From: Octopus vulgaris
Taxonomy: Eukaryota
Direction: 5' to 3'
Assembly: GCA_951406725.2 (NCBI GenBank)
Contig: OX597825.1
Coordinates: 40,176,001-40,240,000 of the forward strand
DNA: 64,000 bases
Position numbers and translations under genes: made by a program. The notes beneath the pieces were generated by a model. That model searched no databases, was not told the DNA's origin, and saw only the letters and a program-made list of their open reading frames with translations. Numbering within the stretch: position 1 is the first letter of the stretch; every line of letters starts with the position of its first letter. This document shows positions 20,919-61,170 of this stretch, piece after piece.

Positions 20919-23715
20919 AAATGTTCTTTATAAAATTATTTTAGCATATCAGGAATACCCCCACTTCAAACAGAGAAAGGATAAATCAATACCCACAGGA
21001 TAGACACTGCAACCTCCTCCCCACCCAAAAGAGTTACCAACGAAATCTTCGTTCCAACAACCGACTAAACAGCCATGCACAACAAACCCACACCACTCGC
21101 AATGATTATCAACGAAGGCCTCCTAAAACACCACACCCGAATATGGGATATCGGGACGCACTTCTCAATACTGTTCCAAGAACACACACCATTAATCACA
21201 ACAGGACAGCCAACATCAACAAAGAACAACTATATAATAGCTACCGTCCCAACCACCGCATTCATTTTTTAGACCCAATACGCAAACACAGTGACACAAG
21301 ATAGCACCAAACAAACAGGAGGAACCAAAAGTGATAAAAATTATCAATCTAACTCACAAAGAAATAACAGCAAACCAAATAAATATACTTTCCAAAGGAC
21401 TCAAGTTTACACCCACCCCACAACACCCTAACTACAATGAACTGAAAGAAGACATCGCAGAATTCTGCAGAAAATTACGACTTACTGAGGAGCTATATGA
21501 CAAATACAACGAGGACGAATCGTTGGTCAGAAATAGAAGTAACTACACTTACTCATTTCTGTGACCACATATCGAATTAGCCATATCAACATATGCACAA
21601 ACAAAAACACAAAGCAACCTTGATCAAAAAAGAATGGACTGAGTTGAACAAATTAAGACAATACACAACAATAACAATCAAAGAGGCCGATAAAGGGAGT
21701 GCAGTTGTCTTAATAGTCACGACATTTTACATAACTTTTGTACTATCTATGCTGGAAGACACAGCATATTATGAAAAGGCACAAAACTACAGTCAACAAA
21801 AAATAATGAGGGAACTAAAATCATGTTAACCCCATACAAAGAAGGGATCACCGACAAAGAAATATGACTATATGACCAATTTCACAAGTAAAACCAGCCA
21901 ATTCAACGGTATTCCTAAGATACACAAAAGTGAGAAAATAAGTAACGCATGCAAGATAGCTACAGACAAAATAATTAAAGTCCCTAATCCTAATGACCTC
22001 AAATAATAGCAGGTCCCGCATGTGAAACCCACCGCCTCAGTAACGTTTTAGACACCCTGTTAAAACCACTTCTCAAACATGTCAAAAGCTATATAAGGGA
22101 CAACCTGGATATGCTCAATCACCTGCCTAAAACAATAAACAAAAACACCCTACTAGTATCCTTCGATGTAGTCAACCTCTATTCCAATATCACCCACAAC
22201 CTAGGAATAGAAGCAATTCAGTTCTGGCTAGAGAATCACGCCAACGAACTCCCACATCGCATCAAAAAAGAATTCGTGATAGAAGAGGTTAAATTCATCC
22301 TGGAAAATAACTTCTTCGCCTTCAAAGACAACATTTACCGACAAAAATCGGGGACTGCGATGGGTACACGAATGGCCCCCTCCTTTGCCAACCTGGTCAT
22401 GGTATATCTAGAAATCAGTCTGTATCGTAAGGTTCTAGAAAGATATGGCAGCCTTTTCTCCATCTACATATAAAACAACTGGAAGAGATATCTAGATGAC
22501 TGTTTCATTCTTTGGCATGAAAATATAGAGAAACTCAAAGAATTCCAAGCAATTTTAAATGGACTGGACGTAAACATCCAATTCACGATGGAATATAGCC
22601 AGCAACAACTCCCCTTCCACGATATCCTTATTAAGAAAGCTAATAATGTAATAGAAACAGACATATAATATAAGGCTACAGATTCTAAGCAGTATCTTCC
22701 ATCCAATTCATGCCACCCCAGGCACACAAGAATGAATATCCCCTTCAATCTAGCAAAAAGAATATGTACTATAGTTTCTAATGCAAACACCAGAGACACA
22801 CGACTACAGGAACTAAAATATACCCTCATCACCAGGAACTAGCCACCTTCACTTATTGGCATATGTATTCGTCATGCCCTTCAACTCAACATCCAGGAAC
22901 TCAGACATCCCAAATCAAAGAAAAATTTACGACCAAAAGCCTTACCATACATATCCACACACAAACCTCTCAACAATGAAGCCTTCGACACCATCCTCCA
23001 AAACATACCCCTCCTAAAAATGTACCACAGAATGAACACAATCCTCCAAACACACACGATCATAAAAAAGCAAGAGACAGCCTAAATCTATGAAAAGTCT
23101 CCTAACACAAGTTCGAATACGCTCTTCAACACAGAAGCCGACAGTAAAAAAATGTGGAAGACACAATTGCGGGATATGCGATTATCTAATTGAGGGATCA
23201 GAGTTCTCCTTCAAAGAGGGACAACGGTATACAGTGAAAAGCAACTTCACATGTGCTTCGGAGAACCTGATATACACACTAACCTGCTCTGGGTGTCAAG
23301 TGCAGTACATAGGCCAAACAAAAATAGTTTGCGTAAAAGAATGGCCCTGCACAGATCCAAGATAAAAATTCCCCAAAACAGAAAAATAGCTTTCAGCCAA
23401 CACATAGATACTTGCGCCAACAACAAAACACCAAACTTCAGGATTTTCTCCCTCTACCAATTCAGGGACGATACAACCTCGAGACAACGAATAAGTAAAG
23501 AAACTCTCTTTATCACAAAATACAGGTCACTTCTTAACGGGTCTACGACAAACGATATATACACCTCGGCTTTAGAATAACACAATTACACACGAAAATA
23601 TTCCTTCCAAAGGATCCATTACAAATCAGCCACAATCACAGCTATAACCCATAACGTGCCAACTTCAAGTCATACAACACCTCACTATTTCCACTCATTC
23701 ATATTCTCCCTTCTG

Positions 23716-26103: not shown

Positions 26104-27115
26104 TGCCATTATATTAAACATTTGCGAAGAGTAAACATGTCACGCACAGAAAATTGAGCAGAACTGTCAGATTTTCAAAGAGGCCGTATTTTGCGCAATC
26201 TAAGGCTGCTCTTAGCCAGCGAAAAATTGCCGGGAATCTTCAAATTCCTCTTGCTACTGTTAATAGAATTATAGTGGAATTCCAAAAACAAGGAAAAGCA
26301 TCAACAGGTTCTCGTCCCGGCCGACCTGGGCCCTCGGAAAGGAAGCTTCTCTGTTTGAAGAGAGTTGTGGGAAACGAACCTCGTTCGAAGTTTATTGATA
26401 TTGCAAAACAGCTAGAAGTTAATCCAAGAACGTGTGTTTCATTTCTGCATAAGCTTATCTATTATGGACGAGCAGCTAGAAGAAAACCTCTCCTTCAAAC
26501 AATTAATTACATGAAAACAAAGTTCATCCAGTTCATTTTACTCTAGGGTGATTTTCTCAGATGAATCTAGATTTGCATTATTTTGAGACAGTGGACGTGT
26601 TTGGGTCTGGAGTTTTCCCAATCAAGAATTTTATTTCAAACGACTTCAACCAACTGTGAAATATAGCAGTATCTCTATAATGGTATAGTGAGCTGTCACC
26701 AGCAATGGTCGTTCTGAGCTGATCGAATGTGTTGGAGCCATAAACTCTGAAAAATACATCGAAATACTTACGATGTATTCACACGATAACATAACGAAAG
26801 TAAGTTTTTATTCATGGAAGATGGAACTCCATGCCACAGAGCAAAAAGAAATCAAATATGGCTGACTGAAAATGAGATCAAAAAGTTTCCTTGGCCGAGC
26901 CAATCTTCTGACATGGACCCGATTAAAAATCTTTGGAGCATACTAGAGAGAGCTATACGAAAATCTCGAAAGAAACCTAAATCTAAAGGTGAATTTCTTT
27001 CGATTATTGCGTGAAAAGTGGACAGAAATTCCACAAGAGACAATCGCAAAGCTCATCAGTTCAATGCCAAAAAGAGTTTCTTAATTAAAAAACGAATGTC
27101 AACTAAATGCTAAAG
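26104..27115 (+). mobile_element. Tc1-family DNA transposon remnant (DD34E-type transposase pseudogene)
   Basis: HTH region, RPGRP, GRAARRKPLL, VIFSDESRF, MEDGTPCHRAK, WPSQSSDMDPIKNLW; stops and frameshifts. Confidence 0.92.
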
Positions 27116-27490: not shown

Positions 27491-28085
27491 CGATATTTGG
27501 AGATAGAAATAAACGTAATAGTACCGGTCCCAGCAAACTAATTTGGGATCTAAAAGACCACAATAAACAATTTCATTTAAAAGTTTGATTCTCTCAATCT
27601 CGATACCTTATGACAAAGTCAAGGAATTCGGTCTTCTCTGTAATTCTGAACTATTTTTCATTATTTATTCTAAAAATCCCCTCCTAACCACAGTAATAGA
27701 GCGAACATACAGATGTAAACATTGGCAAAAACACACCTTTTGTGCATATAAGTAATCTCTATCATTATATATAATTTAAACATTAATTTCCTTCATATTT
27801 AACATTCACTATTAATATCCCTACTCTTTCTGTAAGCTACTTCTGACGTTATATCATATAATTGTTTTTAAACAATATTAATAGCGTTTAGTTAATCACT
27901 ATACGAATCCATCATTTTTTGCTAAAACGTCTTATTTACGAGTTTCGTTTTTTCACTTTCCTGAAGAGAAGATTGCATTGTTTATATCATTTATTCTTTT
28001 GAATAATATGAGTGGAATTTTCGAAATATGTGTCGAAAGTAAAAATATTTGATTTATACCTGCGTTAAACTCCATTTACTTATTC
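27491..28085 (+). mobile_element. 5'-truncated PLE (Hydra-like): endonuclease C-terminus plus pLTR
   Basis: DRNKRNSTGPSKLIWDLKD and PYDKVKEFGLLCNSELFFII...RCKHW align with RDMNKRQTTGLSKLIWRLKD and PFDRGRSQCNLCVSELFHIL..RCPHW in ORF 55882-57651. Ends at (TA)n. Confidence 0.85.
27955..28040 (+). ncRNA. Type I hammerhead ribozyme, canonical core
   Basis: ACTTTC-CTGAAGA-GAAGATT...AATTTTC-GAA-ATATGTGT-C-GAAAGT. Perfect 6-bp stem I, long stem II, GUC site ending at 28034. Confidence 0.8.
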
Positions 28086-33854: not shown

Positions 33855-34877
33855 TTAATAATAATATTGATAAAAAAAAAATAATAATAATAAGTTACAT
33901 GAGCCACGCTTACTACAACTGCCCCTGCGGTTACTACTATTATTACTACTACTACTACTACTGCTGCTGCTATTGCTGCTTGTTCTCCAACTACTGTTGC
34001 TGCTGCTGCTAATAATGATAAATCCGGACCATGTATGAAGATCAGTTGTTAAAATAAATAAATAAAGTTATAAATACTAATAAGATACTAAATAAATAAA
34101 TAAATAAATAATATCTAAAAAATGAATATTTAATAATAATTTAACTTTACTTAGAAAGAAACTAAAATTTCAAAGAGTACACCGAATCGCTAGTCCAATG
34201 GTTATTCATGAAGCGCGCCTGTCAGGAGGCTGTCAGCCTGCCGGCGACAAAATTATTTTAGATATCTTACCCACTTATTTGTTTTATTAATTTTATTTTG
34301 CTCGTTCACTTGCCAATGCTGACCATTGTTTTATTTATTTGTTTTTTGTTTTATTTATTAACTATCAACGAAGCAGAACCACTTCATGGTTTTCAAAAGA
34401 GAGCTGCCCAATTAGGTTGTAGGAACAACTATGACCCCACCCCTCTACACATAGGGATTCCGAGATTTGCAACGAACATACTATCGCATTTTGGCCCCAC
34501 CTGGTTCCTTCCTCTCATTGAGGCACTCATATACCAATTTTCCCAAGGTGGGTTCATCAACATAAGCTACTTATGCCATACTATTCGCAACGTTACACCT
34601 ACTAACTGGCACTTTGCATATAAACTTTCACCTCCACAACCTGGACCATATTCTCAAACCCACCACTGAAGCTCTATGTAAACATGTGAACTACTGCCTA
34701 AAATTATTCTTAATGTAAAAGCTTCCTGGAGAACGACTATATTCGCTTATCCACCACTGGACGAAATAACATGGATCCTATAATACATCACGGGATGTCT
34801 TTATCTTATTTTCCCTTGCTATACCTAAACCATTATAGTAAGATGCACTTCACTTACATCCTCATGCTTGTAGAGTT

Positions 34878-35603
34878 ATGGGTACATGTGTCTGTGGAGT
34901 GCTCAGCCATAATTCTCTACTTATAGAAAATGGCATACAGCGGGCTATAAAAATACCTATACAACAACTTAGGACAACCCAAGGAAGAGGAAAACAAGAA
35001 CAAGTCATACCATTCATAGTGACACACAACCCATGTCACCAGAATATCTTCAACATTGCCAAAGCAAACCTACCAATCATTGCCCAAAGTAATGAATTAA
35101 AAGACATAATCAAGGATCGAGCTATGGTGCTTAGTAAAAGACAGCCTAAAAACTTGAAAACATTACTAACAAAGGCAAAATTTGACCTCAGCAACAAAGA
35201 CCAAACATTCACGGTATCTAAATGCAATGATAGCCGATGTGGCACATGCCAATTCATACATACCGGTCAATATATAAACACAAAAACCGGGAAAATATTC
35301 ACAAACGCGAATATGAACTGCAAAAGCAGAAATTTAATTTACTGCATCAAATGCCCAAATTGTGAAGAAATATATGTAGGTCAGACGGGAAACGCACTAT
35401 TAGAACGCTCACGTGTACACCGGCAACAGATTAGAGACCCAGAGGTCCGTCAGATACCTTTGAGTAACCACCTAGCAACATGTGGTCGGAAAATATATAT
35501 AATATTTCCATTCTACAAATTACACAGCCCAAGTGAAATCGAGAGGAAAATCAGAGAAAAGAATTTTATTGATAAATTCGAACCCAAGCTAAATAAGCAA
35601 TAA
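34878..35603 (+). CDS. PLE (Neptune-like) C-terminal fragment: thumb end, Cys linker and intact GIY-YIG endonuclease, open for 241 codons
   Basis: IPFIVTHNP, KRQPKNLK, KCNDSRCGTC, NLIYCIKCPNCEEIYVGQTG, H..Q, FPFY, REKNFIDKFEPKLN. The first ~11 codons come from a SINE fragment. Confidence 0.88.
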   Translation: MGTCVCGVLSHNSLLIENGIQRAIKIPIQQLRTTQGRGKQEQVIPFIVTHNPCHQNIFNIAKANLPIIAQSNELKDIIKDRAMVLSKRQPKNLKTLLTKAKFDLSNKDQTFTVSKCNDSRCGTCQFIHTGQYINTKTGKIFTNANMNCKSRNLIYCIKCPNCEEIYVGQTGNALLERSRVHRQQIRDPEVRQIPLSNHLATCGRKIYIIFPFYKLHSPSEIERKIREKNFIDKFEPKLNKQ

Positions 35604-36343
35604 TAATAATACTTAGAGGTATTACTTCCACTGCTACGACCATGACCACTAACAACAACAACAATACTAAAGGTGATCAAGACGAAGATAGCAGGAAAAT
35701 TATCTTATTTAGGGTTAAAAGTTCTATTGCCACCACCATCACCACTAGCAACAATAATTAAGGTGCTGACAATGATGATGATGACAATTGAAATATAAAA
35801 ATATAAAAATCTCTGACAAAGGATATTTACATTTCTAAAAATAACCCAACAATTGCTGCTTCGGCCAGGGTCAAGATAGACTTACGTCTAATGATCGTCT
35901 AATGATCGTCAGCAGAACTGATTCTGAACACATCATAAATAAACTACCAACCTTACGTAGCGAAGACGAACAGACAACTGCTCACTCCGGCCAAGCACAT
36001 GGAATGTTTATAAATCATATATCCGGTAAATGGCGGGCTTTTTACGAACTGCATGTCGGGTAATGAAAAGTATTTCGGAATAAGTTTAACAATTAAGGAT
36101 AATCTCTTAATAAGGGATCTTAACAAGAAATTATCGGGTAGCTAGCGTGAAAACCTCATAAAAGAAAAGAATCCGAAAATAATTTTTTTTCTTTTGAACA
36201 AATTAATTATATCTATATTGTATAGAGGGCATTATTACACATAAATGCCTCACACTAGGAGGGACAAAGTCATTACTACCAAAATTATACTAATCATACC
36301 CAAATGCAGTTTTTCAAAGCAAGACATTTAAAAAATGAATTTA

Positions 36344-36399
36344 GTTCTGTATCACCGTGATTTCACATTCAACTTACGTCTAATGATCGTCAGCAGAAC
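36344..36399 (-). ncRNA. Type I hammerhead ribozyme, array copy 1
   Basis: GTTCTG-CTGACGA-T-CATTAGAC(GTAA)GTTGAATG-T-GAA-ATCA(CGG)TGAT-A-CAGAAC. Perfect 6-bp stem I, canonical core, AUA triplet, U-U at the base of stem II. Confidence 0.8.
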
Positions 36400-36822
36400 T
36401 GATTCTGAACACATCATAAATAAACTACCAACCTTACGTAGCGAAGACGAACAGACAACTGCTCACTCCGGCCAAGCACATGGAATGTTTATAAATCATA
36501 TATCCGGTAAATGGCGGGCTTTTTACGAACTGCATGTCGGGTAATGAAAAGTATTTCGGAATAAGTTTAACAATTAAGGATAATCTCTTAATAAGGGATC
36601 TTAACAAGAAATTATCGGGTAGCTAGCGTGAAAACCTCATAAAAGAAAAGAATCCGAAAATAATTTTTTCTTTTGAACAAATTAATTATATCTATATTGT
36701 ATAGAGGGCATTATTACACATAAATGCCTCACACTAGGAGGGACAAAGTCATTACTACCAAAATTATACTAATCATACCCAAATGCAGTTTTTCAAAGCA
36801 AGACATTTAAAAAATGAATTTA

Positions 36823-36878
36823 GTTCTGTATCACCGTGATTTCACATTCAACTTACGTCTAATGATCGTCAGCAGAAC
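36823..36878 (-). ncRNA. Type I hammerhead ribozyme, array copy 2
   Basis: Identical to 36344-36399. Confidence 0.8.
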
Positions 36879-37302
36879 TGATTCTGAACACATCATAAAT
36901 AAACTACCAACCTTACGTAGCGAAGACGAACAGACAACTGCTCACTCCGGCCAAGCACATGGAATGTTTATAAATCATATATCCGGTAAATGGCGGGCTT
37001 TTTACGAACTGCATGTCGGGTAATGAAAAGTATTTCGGAATAAGTTTAACAATTAAGGATAATCTCTTAATAAGGGATCTTAACAAGAAATTATCGGGTA
37101 GCTAGCGTGAAAACCTCATAAAAGAAAAGAATCCGAAAATAATTTTTTTCTTTTGAACAAATTAATTATATCTATATTGTATAGAGGGCATTATTACACA
37201 TAAATGCCTCACACTAGGAGGGACAAAGTCATTACTACCAAAATTATACTAATCATACCCAAATGCAGTTTTTCAAAGCAAGACATTTAAAAAATGAATT
37301 TA

Positions 37303-37358
37303 GTTCTGTATCACCGTGATTTCACATTCAACTTACGTCTAATGATCGTCAGCAGAAC
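37303..37358 (-). ncRNA. Type I hammerhead ribozyme, array copy 3
   Basis: Identical to 36344-36399. Confidence 0.8.
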
Positions 37359-37809
37359 TGATTCTGAACACATCATAATTAAACTACCAACCTTACGTAG
37401 CGAAGACGAACAGACAACTGCTCACTCCGGCCAAGCACATGGAATGTTTATAAATCATATATCCGGTAAATGGCGGGCTTTTTACGAACTGCATGTCGGG
37501 TAATGAAAAGTATTTCGGAATAAGTTTAACAATTAAGGATAATCTCTTAATAAGGGATCTTAACAAGAAATTATTCGGGTAGCTAGCGTGAAAACCTCAT
37601 AAAATAATTTTTTTCTTTTGAACAAATTAATTATATCTATAGGAGGGACAAAGTCATTACTACCAAAATTATACTAATCATACCCAAATGCAGTTTTTCA
37701 AAGCAAGACATTTATATATATAGCAGAACTGATTCTGAACACATCATATATACCATATAGCGATACGAACAGACAACTATATAAGCACATGGATATATCA
37801 TATAGACTG

Positions 37810-37848
<39 letters not shown>

Positions 37849-38436: not shown

Positions 38437-39655
38437 TCATATGGAGTTGTGGGACCTACCTATTGATGAAAATTGCCTCTCTATTCCTTCTTTGCTGTAT
38501 TGAGGTGTTCTGTGAACAGTGATAGAAGGGGAGAATTCGGAAGTTAGGATAATTTTTCTAGCAGACATTTCTATGTGTTCACTGAGCTGTATCTGTCTGT
38601 ATTGTGGGTGGGGGATTTGTTCTTTGTGGAGAGGGGTTCTTCGACGGAGTGATATTTCTCTTTTGCCAATATACTGATTACCGCACCCTAAGCATATAAT
38701 GGCATAGATTAGATTTTCCGAGGCAGAGGTGAAATTTGATTTAATCTTAACTATTTCACCTTGTTTAAAGTCGAGTTGAGTCCCTTCCAAAAGTTCAGCG
38801 CATGTGCTACAGTTCTGTCGACCGCATTTTTTTCACTTTTCGTTCCGATGTTAATGGATATAGTCTTGCACTGGTTAATATTTTTCAATGATTTAGGTTG
38901 CATTTTTGCGTTTGATAATTTTGTGTGAGCTTAAATTTTTGTCATTGTTTTATATCCTGTGACGATGGGTAGATTGTGGATGATAATATTGTGTGGAGAT
39001 ATATGGTAATATTTTAAAGTTTGGCGTAGTATTTCGGTTGACGTCCCTTAATGTTCATATTTCCATTGCTCGTTTAATGTCATCATTTATTAATTATATT
39101 GGGTAATGTTCAAGGTTTCTTCGTCCGGGAGTATAGGTGTCCAAAACTACGGTACTGGTTCTTTTCGCTATATTATAAGGTATATTAATTTTTATGTGTT
39201 TGGGGTGGCATGAGTTGAATAATATGTATTGTTTTGAATCTGTGGGTTTAGAGAAGATGTCTGTTTCGATGTGGTTATTGACTATTTTAATTAAAATGTT
39301 AAGAAAAGGGAGCTGATTATTGCTGTGCTCCATAGTGAATTGTATGTTGCTATTGATATTCTTGAGCATTATTTAGAAATTGAGGAGTTTGTCCATGCTA
39401 TCATTCCAAAGTAGATAGTAATTCTCCAAATACCTCTTCCAGTTCTCCTTTAAATAGCAATGGAATTAGGTGCCATATTTTTGTAGTAATTATTGGTGTA
39501 TTTTGAGTTGTAGATAACCCATTACAAAATTCGCAATCACTAGGGCAGCTAGGGTTCCCATTGCAATCCCACATTTTTGTCCATAGTGAGCTATATCGAA
39601 CATGAAATAATTCTTCAGTACGATGAATTTGATTGCTGCGATTATGAATCTGTGG
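38437..39655 (-). mobile_element. 5'-truncated decayed PLE (Neptune-like), RT motif B to GIY-YIG; related to 20612-24609
   Basis: GIAMGT..ANFVMGYL, NIQFTMEHSNNQLPFL, KPTDSKQY..SCHPKH..NIPYN, NLIYAIICLGCGNQYIG. Confidence 0.92.
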
Positions 39656-39695
39656 TGTATATATATATATATATATATATAGATATATATATATA

Positions 39696-40056
39696 GTAGG
39701 AGCACTCCGTCGGTTACGACGATGAGGGTCGCAGCTGATACGTGGAATTAACGTGCAAGTGGCTGAGCACTCCACAGACACATGTACCCATAACGTAGTT
39801 CTCGAGGAGATTCAGCGTGACACAGAGTGTGACAAGGCTGGCCCTTTGAAATACAGGTACAACAGAAACAGGAAGAAAGAGTGAGAGAAAGCTGTGGTGA
39901 AAGAGTACAGTAGGGTTCACCACCACGCCCTGCAGGAGCTTCGTGAAGCTTTAGGTGTTTTCGCTCAATAAACACTCACAATGCCCGGTCTGGGAATCGA
40001 AACCGCGATCCTACGACCGCGAGTCCGCTGCCCTAACCACTGGGCCATTGCGCCTC
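39696..40056 (-). mobile_element. tRNA-derived SINE family B, full length
   Basis: Minus-strand head GGCGCAATGGCCCAGTGGTTAGGGCAGCGGACTCGCGG...GGTTTCGATTCCC with A and B boxes; near-identical copy at 51761-52134. Confidence 0.9.
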
Positions 40057-55057: not shown

Positions 55058-55114
55058 CATTATTGGTGAATTGAAGAAATGGAGCTGAACGCAGATTGAA
55101 CAGAAATCGTTTTA

Positions 55115-55204
55115 TTTCATACTACATGTGTTTCGAAAGGCACAAATTACCAAAATCCGATGGAATAATGGGACCATATTGTGTCTTTCTCTTCAGGAAG
55201 AAAA
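55115..55204 (-). ncRNA. Type I hammerhead ribozyme (inverted pLTR copy)
   Basis: Reverse complement of 58239-58328 with two changes (stem III ACACATGT; stem I 3' strand GTATGAAA). Confidence 0.72.
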
Positions 55205-55420
55205 TAGGAAATCCGTTGGAAAAACAAAAACAGAACAGAGGCGGAGCAAAAACAAATCGAACTATGCTCCTAAGAGCCCATGGCGAAACTGTTTATCAGT
55301 GTATGTTGAGAACCGGTGGCTGAAGAATTCAACGGGTCAGGCATCGGTCAATCAAATGGGTGAGGGTCACATAATACATACCGCTTCGTCAAGAAACTGC
55401 TACTTTAACCGATACCAATA

Positions 55421-55846
55421 ATGGAGTTGTTCGAGATTGATGCGTCCCTTAAGGATATTCCTATGCCACCAAAGGATGCCTTCCTTAAGGAGTTGGTTTG
55501 TAAAACCAACGCATTCATAAACCGGATAAGATGGCTCATTTTCTTCCACGAGAACGAAGATCTAAAATCGAACCGGACAACAGCATCGTCCGAATACGGC
55601 CGGCTTTTTAAAACATTGGATACGCCGCCACCTAACCCAAGACTGAAGAAGTTTGAGGACGACTTGTGGGACATAGTTAGAAAGATTAAGTTCAGGAAGT
55701 CACCCAGGAGAAATGCCCACCTCAGATACCTAGATAAAATTAGCAAGGACATTAATAGAACGGACGGAGTCCTGGTCCAGTCCGACAAGACCAGGAACAC
55801 ATACAAGATGCCCATTAAGCAGTACCTAGATTTACCTAGATTTTAG
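55421..55846 (+). CDS. PLE polyprotein N-terminal part, ending at an internal deletion and frameshift
   Basis: SLKDIPMP, FINRIRW, LKKFEDDL, SDKTRN (DKG/DKT motif). Confidence 0.85.
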   Translation: MELFEIDASLKDIPMPPKDAFLKELVCKTNAFINRIRWLIFFHENEDLKSNRTTASSEYGRLFKTLDTPPPNPRLKKFEDDLWDIVRKIKFRKSPRRNAHLRYLDKISKDINRTDGVLVQSDKTRNTYKMPIKQYLDLPRF

Positions 55847-57651
55847 TTGCCAGGAAATCGTTTATTAAGTTTGATAATAAGTTGTGGATCCGTAAAGATA
55901 CTCCCAATGAATTTGATGTGCCTATGGGTAGTTCGGATAGTGCGCAGATAGCCGATTTGGTCGGAATATATATTCTCTACGAATTGTCCGACCAATTCCC
56001 GGAGATCGCGGGCGGCCTGTATCGTGACGATTGTCTGTTTTACCTGCAAAACACCACGAACAGAATAGTGCAGAAAACTAAGAGCAGGTTAGCTAGGTTT
56101 TTTAATAGAATGGGCATGAGTATAGTTTTTGATAATGAACTCACCAAGGCCAATTTCCTAGACGTTACACTTAACCTTAATAGCGACTCATACTGCCCTT
56201 ACCATAAGCCTTCCACTAATTTGAAGTATGTCAGTGTCTTCTCAAATCATGCCAAAACCGTAACAGACAATTTGGTTAAAAACATCTCTCTAAGATTGTC
56301 TGGCTTGTCCGCCAGTGCCGATATTTTTATGCAGAAAGCGGAATTTTATAACGCCGCACTATCCAAGGCCGGTTATAGGCAGAAGGTAATTTATATTGAT
56401 CCGGCCCTTCCGATGCCATCATTCGGTCATCAGGATAGGGCCGTATATAATAACATTAACATTTTAAGTAAGGACGGGAGCGCGGTGGATGCCGGAGTAG
56501 TTGCTCCCGCATTTAATTTAGCGAAGAAGGATAATTATCGGTCCGGGAGGTCTTACACTAACCCAAGACCCGTTATTCATCCGAGAATCACCCACCCGAA
56601 TGCGAGAGCTGGCGTCCCGATCCATCACACTGATAGGAATAAGCATATATGGTTTGTAATCCCCTTTGGTAAGCAGATTAGAACTAACCTCCCCCTCATG
56701 TTTAGACAAGCCATCGCCAATAACTTCCCCAGAAGTTCCAAATATTACTCCACGGTTAACTCGCATAAAGTTAGGATAGCTTTCTCCAACACTAAAAACC
56801 TCGCCCAGATAATCGCCTCCCATAATAATAGGCTACTTACTAAGACCCTATCACCTTTTTCCGGAGGCACAGCCTCTTCCGCTCCCGGTTTAATGCTCAG
56901 TAGGAATAATTATAGTAGTAAGAATGATATGAGAGCCAGTACAGTGACACATAATCTCAGCTCCAGCCAGGGAGTACCCACTAGGGGTATAGTTATAAAT
57001 AGGGGTGTTGTGGTTGAAGGTAACAATGGGAGTAGGGTAGAGAGCCCCAATAGCATCCCCAGCATCATTTCCCGCTATAGCAGCACCACGGGCAGTAGCA
57101 ATGACAGCACTTTGATAGATAGTGGAGAATCAGGCGTTATTCCTATAGTTAATAGTGACGTAGTGGAAAATAGAGTAGTAAGCGGCTGCAGGTCTCGGAA
57201 CGAATATAGTGACAGGAACGCAGTTCTAATTTCAGAAACTAATCCTAGCAGAATTAGATTCACGTCGGCGAACTCCAAGATCAAAAACGCCGTCTACCAA
57301 TGCAAGGTTTACACGGACTCAGATGTTTTCACTTATGTAGGGGCCTCATCCTCAAGATTGTCTTTGCGTGTCTCCAACCATTACGCAACTTTTCGGGACA
57401 TGAACAAGCGCCAGACCACGGGACTCAGTAAGCTAATATGGCGACTGAAGGATATGAACTTAAGCTACAGGCTGGAATGGTCAATTTTGTCGGTGGCCCT
57501 CCCATTTGATAGGGGCAGAAGCCAGTGCAACCTTTGTGTCTCCGAACTCTTCCATATTTTGTTTGCCAGAGGCCGGATGGTAAACGGGCTTTTACAATCG
57601 GCTTTTCGATGCCCCCATTGGCGGCGTTACACTTATCTGGCTTCTAAATAG
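55843..57651 (+). CDS. PLE RT (motif B to thumb), long linker and GIY-YIG endonuclease, uninterrupted reading frame
   Basis: ARKSF, FDVPMGSSDSAQIADLVG, GLYRDDCL, NFLDVTL, YHKP..YV..SNH, AVYQC..TYVGAS, H..F, LSKLIW, WSIL, CNLC.SE, RCPH. Confidence 0.92.
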   Translation, partial: LVARKSFIKFDNKLWIRKDTPNEFDVPMGSSDSAQIADLVGIYILYELSDQFPEIAGGLYRDDCLFYLQNTTNRIVQKTKSRLARFFNRMGMSIVFDNELTKANFLDVTLNLNSDSYCPYHKPSTNLKYVSVFSNHAKTVTDNLVKNISLRLSGLSASADIFMQKAEFYNAALSKAGYRQKVIYIDPALPMPSFGHQDRAVYNNINILSKDGSAVDAGVVAPAFNLAKKDNYRSGRSYTNPRPVIHPRITHPNARAGVPIHHTDRNKHIWFVIPFGKQIRTNLPLMFRQAIANNFPRSSKYYSTVNSHKVRIAFSNTKNLAQIIASHNNRLLTKTLSPFSGGTASSAPGLMLSRNNYSSKNDMRASTVTHNLSSSQGVPTRGIVINRGVVVEGNNGSRVESPNSIPSIISRYSSTTGSSNDSTLIDSGESGVIPIVNSDVVENRVVSGCRSRNEYSDRNAVLISETNPSRIRFTSANSKIKNAVYQCKVYTDSDVFTYVGASSSRLSLRVSNHYATFRDMNKRQTTGLSKLIWRLKDMNLSYRLEWSILSVALPFDRGRSQCNLCVSELFHILFARGRMVNGLLQSAFRCPHWRRYTYLASK

Positions 57652-59309: not shown

Positions 59310-61170
59310 ACCCCCACATCCTCACCTCAAGCCTGGGGTCGTATTGGATACAAAACAGACTCCTTGATGACCTCAGATCGCAAAGACTGGATTTAGTAGT
59401 TACTAATGAAACCAGACTGAGTAGATTTTCCACCTCTCCTAAATGGCTACAAGAAATTTATTTTTCAGGCCAAACTGGAGGGTGAGGAGGAGACGCTATT
59501 CTCCTAGGGAGAAATTTGGATTTAGAAGTAAGAATTGTCTGTATAGACACGAAAGGCTTGTTGGTCGAACTTAATGTGACGTACAGCAGCGTTAATCCTT
59601 CAGGTTGGTGGCTGTCTATACTCCTTGTGGACCAGGGCAAAGAGAATTTTCTAAGAACATCGCACATTTTAGTGTTAGTAGGAGACTGTGATACATTCTT
59701 CGATGCACACGAAGGTTGTGTTGGCTCCAATCCGGACAGGAAGGGGAACACTTGCCTCAGCAGTCTGCTAAGTCCTATTCAGCTGGCAGACCGATTCAGA
59801 CTGGATCACCTGGATTTTCCATTGTGGACATGAGCGAATAACGATGGGTCTTCTAGATCGTATCTAGACAAGATTACTGTTATAATTAAAGATAAGATCA
59901 TAGTTAGATGTCCACAACATCGTTTTCTGAATTACAGTGATCGCAAATTTGTGACCTCTACGTTTGACTTAGATAGGATGTGTAGACAGGGACCTGGTTA
60001 CTGAAAGCTAAATAGGTTTCTTTTGGCCTGTGAAGCCTACAGGAACGGGTTAGGGATTTAGTGATAAGGGCATTAAAAATACCATTATTTACAACAAATG
60101 TTGTTACGCCTTTAAAAGAGCCATTACATTTCCGCCCATTAGATTTAGTAAGGAACTAGATATAAACATAATTAGAATAGAAAGGGCTTCAGTTAAGGCT
60201 CTAGAAGAGGCATTGAGGCCCTGCATCCAGAGTTCTAGCAGCGTGGTTGGCGTTCAACCAACATTTCAAAGCTAAAAACGAAGGATGCATTTTCAAGAGA
60301 GGGTGTCAATAGGACATATGGCCGTGTTTTAGAAAGCCAACGTGATAAATAATGCACAAATAAGGTATTTGAAGGACTATCAATATCTAGCGTCAGTCTT
60401 TGCAGCGGCCGGGTTTGGGCCGACCTTCTGTGGGAGGATCACCGCTTGATATAGCAACATCAATTTGATCGTTCAGGTGAACGGTTTTTTTTTTTGGAAA
60501 ACTTCTTCATTGAGCCCTTGGTACAGGAAGGATGTCCTCTCTCCAATTCCGTATGATTTGGTCCTCGAGCCATTGCTGCGAAAATTGAAGGCTATGAGAG
60601 CCACCTCGTGAGATCTGTGGTGTGGTGAATCGGTTTCAACGTATTATGACGACATCACTTTCATCGTATCTCGGATCGAACACCTACAGGGCTCTGGTTT
60701 GGATTAGATCTCCAGATAGAGAAGAACTGGAGCAAGGTGGCGAGCAGGGTGGCTCTTTTAACTGAGCGGAAGCTATCCCTGAAAAGGCGGGTGGAGATTG
60801 TAGGTGTGTTTATCGCATCTGTAATTACCTACCGCCTGACCGTCGTGCCTTCCCCAGATTTGTGGCTGAACAATTTGGAACACATGCTCTTTCACTTTTT
60901 GTGGAGAGGCAAGGGGCCTCTTGTAAGGCGCCCTATTTGCTGTCAACAACCGCTGAAGGTTGGACTAGGTATGTTGTAGCTAAAAATGCGCAGGCATGCG
61001 CTGAGGCTGAGGCATCTCTGGCCCTTCCTGGACAGTGAGCAGGTATGATCTCCGTTCGTCAGAGTGGTCCGCGGTTCACCTCTTTTGGTGAACTGAACCC
61101 ATGGATTACTCGTAGACCGAAGTTAGGCACTTGGCAATCGGAGTGTCGTCAGGCAACGTTTGCAGCAGGG
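59310..61170 (+). mobile_element. L1/Tx1-clade LINE ORF2 remnant (AP endonuclease plus RT), internally deleted
   Basis: DLVVTNETR, VLVGDCD, LADRFR..WT, SRSYLD, SDRK, GPGY*KLN, QEGCPLS, LEPLLRK, YDDI, VGLGM. Confidence 0.85.

Follow-up and report, generated by a model that had tools for sequence, protein, structure and literature searches.

The ribozyme array in the window

On the minus strand of the window (the whole 64-kb stretch of Octopus vulgaris DNA analysed here), a 480-bp tandem repeat lies between a broken Penelope-like element (PLE) and a (TA)n microsatellite, which raises the question of what kind of element the repeat is and which enzyme placed it there. TRF reports a period of 479, 3.6 copies and 99% matches over 35896-37604 and, together with a descriptor scan for hammerhead ribozymes, upholds the account in the first-pass annotation of a 480-bp tandem array with a hammerhead in every unit. 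About 3.8 head-to-tail units of 479-481 bp each are present, and the sole difference between the full units is the length of one T run. The array had also been said to lack a real open reading frame (ORF), and this is borne out, as the longest methionine-initiated ORF round the circular 480-nt unit has 33 aa in sense and 69 aa in antisense. The core of the limits originally assigned (35881..37715) stands, but the right limit does not, since unit pieces and TA reach about 37810; similarly, a half copy placed at 35881-35918 is indeed present, but runs to 35919 and includes an 11-bp duplication. The array and its parts are:

35881..37810, minus strand: whole retrozyme insertion, about 3.8 units, a single arm without a canonical 3' end
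35881..35919, minus strand: half hammerhead at the broken 3' end, at the joint with the PLE fragment, with an 11-bp tandem duplication at 35885-35910
36350..36828, minus strand: predicted monomer of 479 nt, its ends closed by stem I
36829..37308, minus strand: predicted monomer of 480 nt, used as reference for unit coordinates (q1 = 37308, the first base past the cut)
37309..37714, minus strand: 5'-most unit, with deletions of 16 and 40 nt
37715..37810, minus strand: stuttering 5' junction, made of short unit pieces in unit order with TA between them
37811..37845, no strand: (TA)n target microsatellite on the 5' side of the array

The hammerhead motif

The descriptor scan of the whole 64-kb window gave five matches, three of which are the identical minus-strand motifs previously recognized in the array, and recovered the predicted cuts, with their 479- and 480-nt monomers, at the same positions:

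36343..36400, minus strand: type I hammerhead 1; core start 36393, H17 36350, predicted cut 36350/36349
36822..36879, minus strand: type I hammerhead 2; core start 36872, H17 36829, predicted cut 36829/36828
37302..37359, minus strand: type I hammerhead 3; core start 37352, H17 37309, predicted cut 37309/37308

The motif has the core CUGACGA...GAAA and three stems, is open at stem I, and carries the cleavage triplet AUA, which is present in a natural viroid hammerhead (PMC1636495). Its architecture agrees with the initial description in the core, the GNRA loop (GUAA) of stem II, the 4-bp stem III and an extendable stem I, while stem I itself has 7 bp, not 6, and its extension crosses a bulge. 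A U.U mismatch at the base of stem II had been suspected of inactivating the ribozyme; this worry is lessened by axolotl HHR_Amex2, which has the same mismatch and is described as cleaving (PMC7229834). Stem III, with its 3-nt loop, is near-palindromic, and neighbouring units could pair as a double hammerhead of the kind described in PMC4209133.

Rfam returned 85 matches in the window and no hammerhead family at E<=1. Genome-wide, the 54-nt motif was found 214 times at up to two mismatches and its reversed control not at all, so the hammerhead is not a product of chance. In a hand-chosen set of 19 young, intermediate and old relatives, whose relatedness leaves few independent events, 94% of cells are paired and 7 of 16 pairs have changed on both sides. 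These two-sided changes fall in stems I and II and exceed all slid controls; stem III is invariant and therefore uninformative. To judge from these sequences, the fold appears to be kept by compensatory changes across about 25% divergence. The minimum free energy structure of the isolated hammerhead is an alternative fold (-13.2 kcal/mol versus -11.8 kcal/mol for the catalytic one), and the pairing probability of stem III in the circular unit is only about 0.06. In published assays of Xenopus retrozyme dimers, eight of nine showed no cleavage in vitro.

A young, dispersed retrozyme family

The array belongs to a family of non-LTR retrozymes that is young, dispersed and non-coding. Searching the 2.8-Gb genome with the unit gave 218 matches with identity of up to 100% (40 of 1616 candidates scored), and copies 97-100% identical lie on more than 20 contigs. 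As in the metazoan non-LTR retrozymes described from coral, mussel and axolotl (PMC7229834), the unit is short, AT-rich and non-coding and forms tandems without an LTR; the tandems, built of units of a few hundred bp, hold at least two consecutive complete hammerheads, and the copies are dispersed outside autonomous elements. Further likenesses are one type I hammerhead per unit, co-occurrence with PLEs and a highly self-paired monomer (PMC7229834; bioRxiv 10.64898/2026.07.22.740005), that predicted at 36350..36828 folding at -129 kcal/mol (z -6.2; 0 of 100 shuffles as stable). The 480-nt unit is longer than the 170-400 nt of the invertebrate retrozymes tested (PMC7229834) but falls inside the 51-972 range of a vertebrate survey (bioRxiv 10.64898/2026.07.22.740005), and stem III has 4 bp as against the 1-2 described for metazoan non-LTR retrozymes. 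The element class is already known; new beside those accounts, as far as they go, are the footprint left by insertion and its agreement with that of a resident PLE.

An older subfamily, about 75% identical, has a tandem unit near 500 bp (2094 candidates) and one of its 3' ends, end B below, in common with the young one; the family thus seems, by sequence comparison, to have persisted as a non-coding unit of about 500 bp across these subfamilies. The first-pass annotation had left a choice between an active retrozyme-type array and a pLTR chain of another PLE, and had proposed looking for the unit as the sense 3' end of an RT-coding PLE. At none of 154 other loci does the unit lead directly into a PLE ORF, and it was not found there in sense beside an RT/GIY-YIG ORF; these results, the lack of similarity to the neighbouring PLE and the lasting non-coding unit favour the retrozyme option. 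The word active is supported as recent spreading, given the nearly identical copies on many contigs, whereas cleavage and circles are predictions.

The unit is present in 20 of the 24 public runs listed (five coded organisms, two metagenomes). Three runs guessed to be RNA cover it, one as a closed 510-nt contig, but a tandem array looks the same and the runs may be DNA. Two metatranscriptomes contain the unit in small shares, and the one checked covered 12 of 29 bins, as seen in assembled contigs only.

Two fixed ends and paired arms

The insertion footprint was mapped at 154 loci, 38 chosen for long arrays and 116 chosen by an exact end junction on contigs C1-C10, a set that leaves out the window copy and one overlapping stretch. 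Among the 263 3' ends of these loci, 118 fall at a site A (about q262-269), 128 at a site B (q130-142) and 17 elsewhere, and a TA run follows 245 of the 246 A and B ends. Exact end patterns detected at least 125 A and at least 182 B junctions genome-wide, with no match for the controls. Both sites are internal in the window copy:

37040..37047, minus strand: site A (q262-269), also at 36080 in the left-hand unit
37167..37179, minus strand: site B (q130-142), also at 36208 in the left-hand unit

At 95 of the 154 loci there are two arms that meet by their 5' ends, giving 97 such head-to-head junctions. A was paired with B in 81 of them and A with A in none; the sole B+B junction belongs to a rearranged three-piece locus, and the remaining 15 have a non-canonical end. 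The 38 loci not picked by an end gave A+B in 20 of 24 head-to-head junctions. Moreover, when exact patterns were placed on C1-C10 (62 A, 97 B), all 24 head-to-head pairs within 10 kb were A+B, an outcome with a chance of about 2e-8. The counts fit, and suggest, the use by each target strand of a different fixed site on one RNA. Likeness to TA alone does not set the two sites, because the stretch of the unit most like TA (q327-332) does not recur as an end. Since (TA)n is the same on both strands, we infer that the A/B asymmetry must come from the RNA-protein complex.

At 17 of the 81 A+B loci neither arm lies inside the other (at 10 of them by more than 40 nt each way), which requires two primings; at the other 64 one arm is contained in the other, the longer arm ending at A in 53 and at B in 11. 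Thirty of the 81 inner junctions are near-perfect palindromes, their two 5' ends no more than 15 nt apart (permutations gave a mean of 6.4 such junctions and a maximum of 18), and across the 116 loci and the window 128 variants are fixed in both arms as against one that is arm-specific. The palindromes speak against two primings, being expected also if the same element and enzyme made the inverted arm by fold-back, with the primed cDNA copying itself until a TA-like stretch annealed to the other target end. Containment of one arm in the other and a single haplotype in both arms point the same way, and rotifer Penelope palindromes have been read as self-priming (PMC3846280). Nevertheless, fold-back is improbable: it does not account for the 17 loci with non-nested arms, it would have either site act as both start and stop (the longer arm being sometimes A and sometimes B), its expected stopping place, the best TA-like site, does not recur among the ends, and two cDNAs halted at one block on one RNA would give palindromes as well.

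In L1 twin priming, both target 3' ends prime on one RNA and head-to-head arms result, with a variable second site and arms that rarely overlap. Here, in contrast, both sites are fixed, and the arms overlap and can reach several units each. Fixed ends, (TA)n targets and two-armed insertions are absent from the accounts of metazoan retrozymes in PMC7229834 and bioRxiv 10.64898/2026.07.22.740005, as far as those accounts go, and no report of such retrozyme insertions was found in the literature searched, whose coverage stopped short of most subscription journals and supplements.

It is most unlikely that assembly produced the tandem array artificially or that it is an ordinary satellite. No contig among those listed from four public runs bridges the joint of the window copy with the PLE fragment, but those contigs are short and cannot show absence; against an artefact or satellite stand dozens of loci with locus-specific haplotypes and precise ends, and both ends recur in independent runs, where TA loose ends place B on 31 and 12 contigs and A on 8.

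The window copy and its joint with a PLE fragment

The window copy is atypical, with one arm, neither canonical 3' end, and (TA)n at its 5' side only. Its neighbour belongs to a family termed here PLE-W:

34914..35878, plus strand: PLE-W fragment truncated at 35878, holding the last part of the ORF (thumb/GIY-YIG) and some of the 3' UTR

Array and fragment face each other tail to tail, and the 11-bp duplication sits where they meet. A twin-primed PLE-retrozyme chimera was considered and rejected for this joint, because twin-primed arms join head to head. On the simplest reading, a single microsatellite would have received both insertions and then lost about 600-750 bp: the retrozyme likely landed in (TA)n beside the PLE 3' end, and a later deletion probably took both 3' ends. 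The last ~230 bases of the copy skip along the unit, with TA added at the later skips, as if the enzyme had alternated between RNA and target. Only four of 56 single arms carry a same-sense piece upstream, and none is like this patchwork; a family trait was rejected on these counts.

The first reading had held that the array, being antisense to the adjoining PLE, was not simply that copy's sense pLTR, and strand and absent similarity agree with it. As the pLTR of the adjacent PLE the unit is ruled out by its strand, by the lack of similarity, and by the position of the PLE's own end about 400 nt past the break in the window.

Short pieces and remnants of other elements lie nearby. A short piece of a very abundant repeat (34875-34909) is found directly ahead of the PLE fragment and again near 39800. 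Older PLE remnants occur at 38437-39811 on the minus strand (33-41% identical to the PLE-W protein) and at 21388-22473 on the plus strand (with an RVT_1 match). Also on the plus strand are a PLE-type hammerhead with long stem II and short stem III (27953-28042; a relative is in L170), a Tc1/mariner-like transposase HTH fragment (26118-26546), and a broken PLE-like ORF of another type (55089-57651), in which RT-like and GIY-YIG-like motifs can be made out by eye, set apart by a long insert, and which gave no Pfam match at E 0.01.

A resident PLE family with the same pairing rule

PLE-W is a young family, with 1384 candidates, 99% identity and a tandem unit of 4271 bp. An intact frame at L111:2848-6447 (G000:C1:197482847-197486446) encodes 1199 aa with RVT_1 and GIY-YIG, and two identical 4271-bp units stand in tandem at L095-L096, with a frameshift present. 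Ahead of the nuclease the protein has a CxxxxCxxC motif, a likeness to published descriptions of the Neptune and Nematis clades; its named relatives come mostly from bivalve molluscs or mollusc-associated samples. Its minimal hammerhead has a CCGAAGA core, a U.U at the stem II base and a minimal palindrome as stem III, whereas stem III of the retrozyme family has 4-5 bp and is invariant.

The target of PLE-W is (TA)n, and its copies end at one or other of two sites separated by 30-46 nt, with 310 exact junctions for the short end and 363 for the long (the common-variant pattern matched 363 times and the rare-variant pattern once). On C1-C3, where 88 short and 85 long ends were found, all 29 head-to-head pairs combine a long with a short end. 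The first end follows the predicted cut by 130-142 nt in the retrozyme and by 136-143 nt in PLE-W, while the spacing between the two ends, about 127 nt from A to B, differs from the 30-46 nt in PLEs. A pairing rule common to the retrozyme and an ORF-bearing PLE of the same genome makes it likely that the former is copied by the enzyme of such an element. More generally, EN+ PLEs form partial tandems with an inverted, 5'-truncated arm and a 'tail' at only one end (PMC8557442; PMC3846280). These traits, and the preference for a (TA)n microsatellite, recur in the retrozyme, which differs from the EN+ PLEs described there in having no ORF and a 'tail' of about 127 nt rather than 30-40.

Against mobilization by a PLE stands the absence of a sequence link to any autonomous PLE found. 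The unit has no similarity to the 4271-bp PLE-W unit (best E 0.07), and no autonomous partner with a common terminal sequence was found in that comparison. PLE-W is therefore a candidate, not a proven, helper. A second PLE family, at L233:657-2733 (minus strand), is 44% identical to PLE-W, likewise ends in (TA)n, is tandem, and adjoins a noisy retrozyme copy; it is another candidate helper. It was rejected as an autonomous relative, as (TA)n separates it from the unit and the two have no sequence in common. Chlamys non-autonomous PLEs such as MRC1 differ in two respects: their 3' end resembles that of an autonomous partner and the MRC1 group is described as lacking canonical hammerheads (PMC8557442), whereas the unit has a hammerhead and no detected similarity to a partner.

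The unit might instead be the pLTR of an autonomous PLE that escaped sampling, its truncated copies making up the arrays. The hammerhead, its spacing to the first end, the inverted arms and the targets are all PLE traits, Xenopus retrozymes have been described as resembling pLTRs, and the exact patterns used in the partner search would miss a partner with a diverged repeat. This is nonetheless very unlikely, since no mapped locus passes from unit into PLE ORF, long copies always continue into another unit, the sole close ORF (L233) is set apart and unrelated, the older subfamily is also tandem at about 500 bp, and the invariant stem III is unlike the minimal palindrome of PLE-W.

In the flanks of nine loci (L032, L096, L116, L143, L169, L183, L197, L212 and L216) several unrelated hammerheads with short stem III were observed, most of them 70-220 nt ahead of a (TA)n run; such spacing looks general for PLE-type elements of this genome.

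A LINE at the retrozyme unit

An L1/Tx1-type LINE with ORF1 and a 1133-aa APE-RT-zf-RVT ORF2 stands in sense at base q388 of the unit at L037:2957-8242 (G000:C2:63.53-63.54 Mb) and at L262 (G000:C3:181434244), and a related LINE lies at q368-384 in a third locus, L158:660-2355. The corresponding place in the window copy is empty:

36916..36921, minus strand: q388-393, base of the LINE insertion in two other loci of the family

The positions suggest a LINE that targets the retrozyme repeat, at a point some 45 nt in front of the ribozyme core. An snRNA-type internal promoter ahead of the LINE target site gained no support from comparing the unit with 12 U2 upstream regions, a comparison that would miss a short or diverged promoter element: 11 of the 12 gave p>0.15, and the one with p=0.025 aligned elsewhere in the unit. 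A degenerate LINE endonuclease/RT fragment in the window (59486-60500, plus strand) is by eye like ORF2 of the L037 LINE.

The RNA template

Most cDNAs run across the ribozyme site without ending there: 234 crossings were counted against 5 stops (3.1 expected), so that the template is either ligated or uncut. Of 228 arms, five have 5' ends at the exact predicted cut (3.1 expected; not significant), and a wider, post-hoc window round the cut holds 16 (7.9 expected); 5' ends were consequently not kept as evidence that the RNA is cleaved in vivo. Two units of one locus differ by 1.2 substitutions and units of different loci by 7.9 (116 loci and the window). With 43 of 117 loci informative, seven locus-private variants are fixed in all 3-13 copies at five loci, while 11 occur in only some units of an array, some of them adjacent or alternating, and 42 are singletons.

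A circle is cautiously preferred to an uncut multimer as template. Tandem transcripts would self-cleave after AUA into 480-nt monomers, which would be ligated into circles and serve as rolling templates; circles are shown for metazoan non-LTR retrozymes (PMC7229834; bioRxiv 10.64898/2026.07.22.740005) and predicted here. The seven fully fixed variants imply single-unit bottlenecks, and compensatory changes seem to have kept the fold over about 25% divergence, both of which argue against an uncut linear multimer transcribed from an existing array, with long arrays growing locally after insertion too and ribozyme and circles minor in mobility. That possibility, rather unlikely but compatible with the rest of the preferred explanation except in the form of the template, draws on the 5' ends not enriched at the exact cut, on the small number of arms exceeding one unit in end-picked loci (15 of 184), and on anole PLE ribozyme mutants, which still insert (PMC11167929). 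The 11 variants confined to some units, set against the seven fixed in all, also tell against monomer circles as the only template.

Proposed mechanism and implications

Taken together, the non-coding hammerhead repeat is likely reverse transcribed into (TA)n by a Penelope-like enzyme, the array being one insertion. A PLE protein, probably as a dimer, would nick both strands of the self-complementary (TA)n; a single RNA would then be primed by one target 3' end at A and by the other at B. From there both cDNAs would extend upstream past the ribozyme, in many cases over several units, and the joining of their 3' ends would produce back-to-back arms, a single arm arising where only one priming survived.

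Mobilization by PLEs has already been proposed for metazoan non-LTR retrozymes on the basis of co-occurrence and pLTR similarity (PMC7229834; bioRxiv 10.64898/2026.07.22.740005, as far as these accounts extend); the connection drawn here is through the insertion footprint, no homologous pLTR having been found. The anole PLE (Anolis Poseidon) cuts and extends both strands in vitro, starting, as proposed for the retrozyme, at two internal RNA sites, and ribozyme cleavage is not needed (PMC11167929). The start site in that assay did not differ between strands, whereas the pairing counted here is strictly one of each.

We tentatively propose, as a possibility, that PLE enzymes integrate by obligatory asymmetric twin priming, in which a dimer on one RNA uses a fixed start for each strand, and that the circle of the unit, lacking any sequence shared with its helper, may mimic this two-site signal by structure and be rolling-copied from both ends of the break at once. 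If so, asymmetric twin priming alone would account for PLEs having an inverted arm and a 'tail' on one side only. The literature consulted leaves open by which enzyme animal retrozymes are mobilized and how PLEs come to insert as tandems with an inverted arm. In this genome one countable rule, an arm at each of two fixed sites in (TA)n, holds both for the non-coding repeat and for a PLE that is intact and just as young. The mechanism is thereby directly testable: the protein is named, the RNA has 480 nt, the target is simple and the start sites are predicted exactly.
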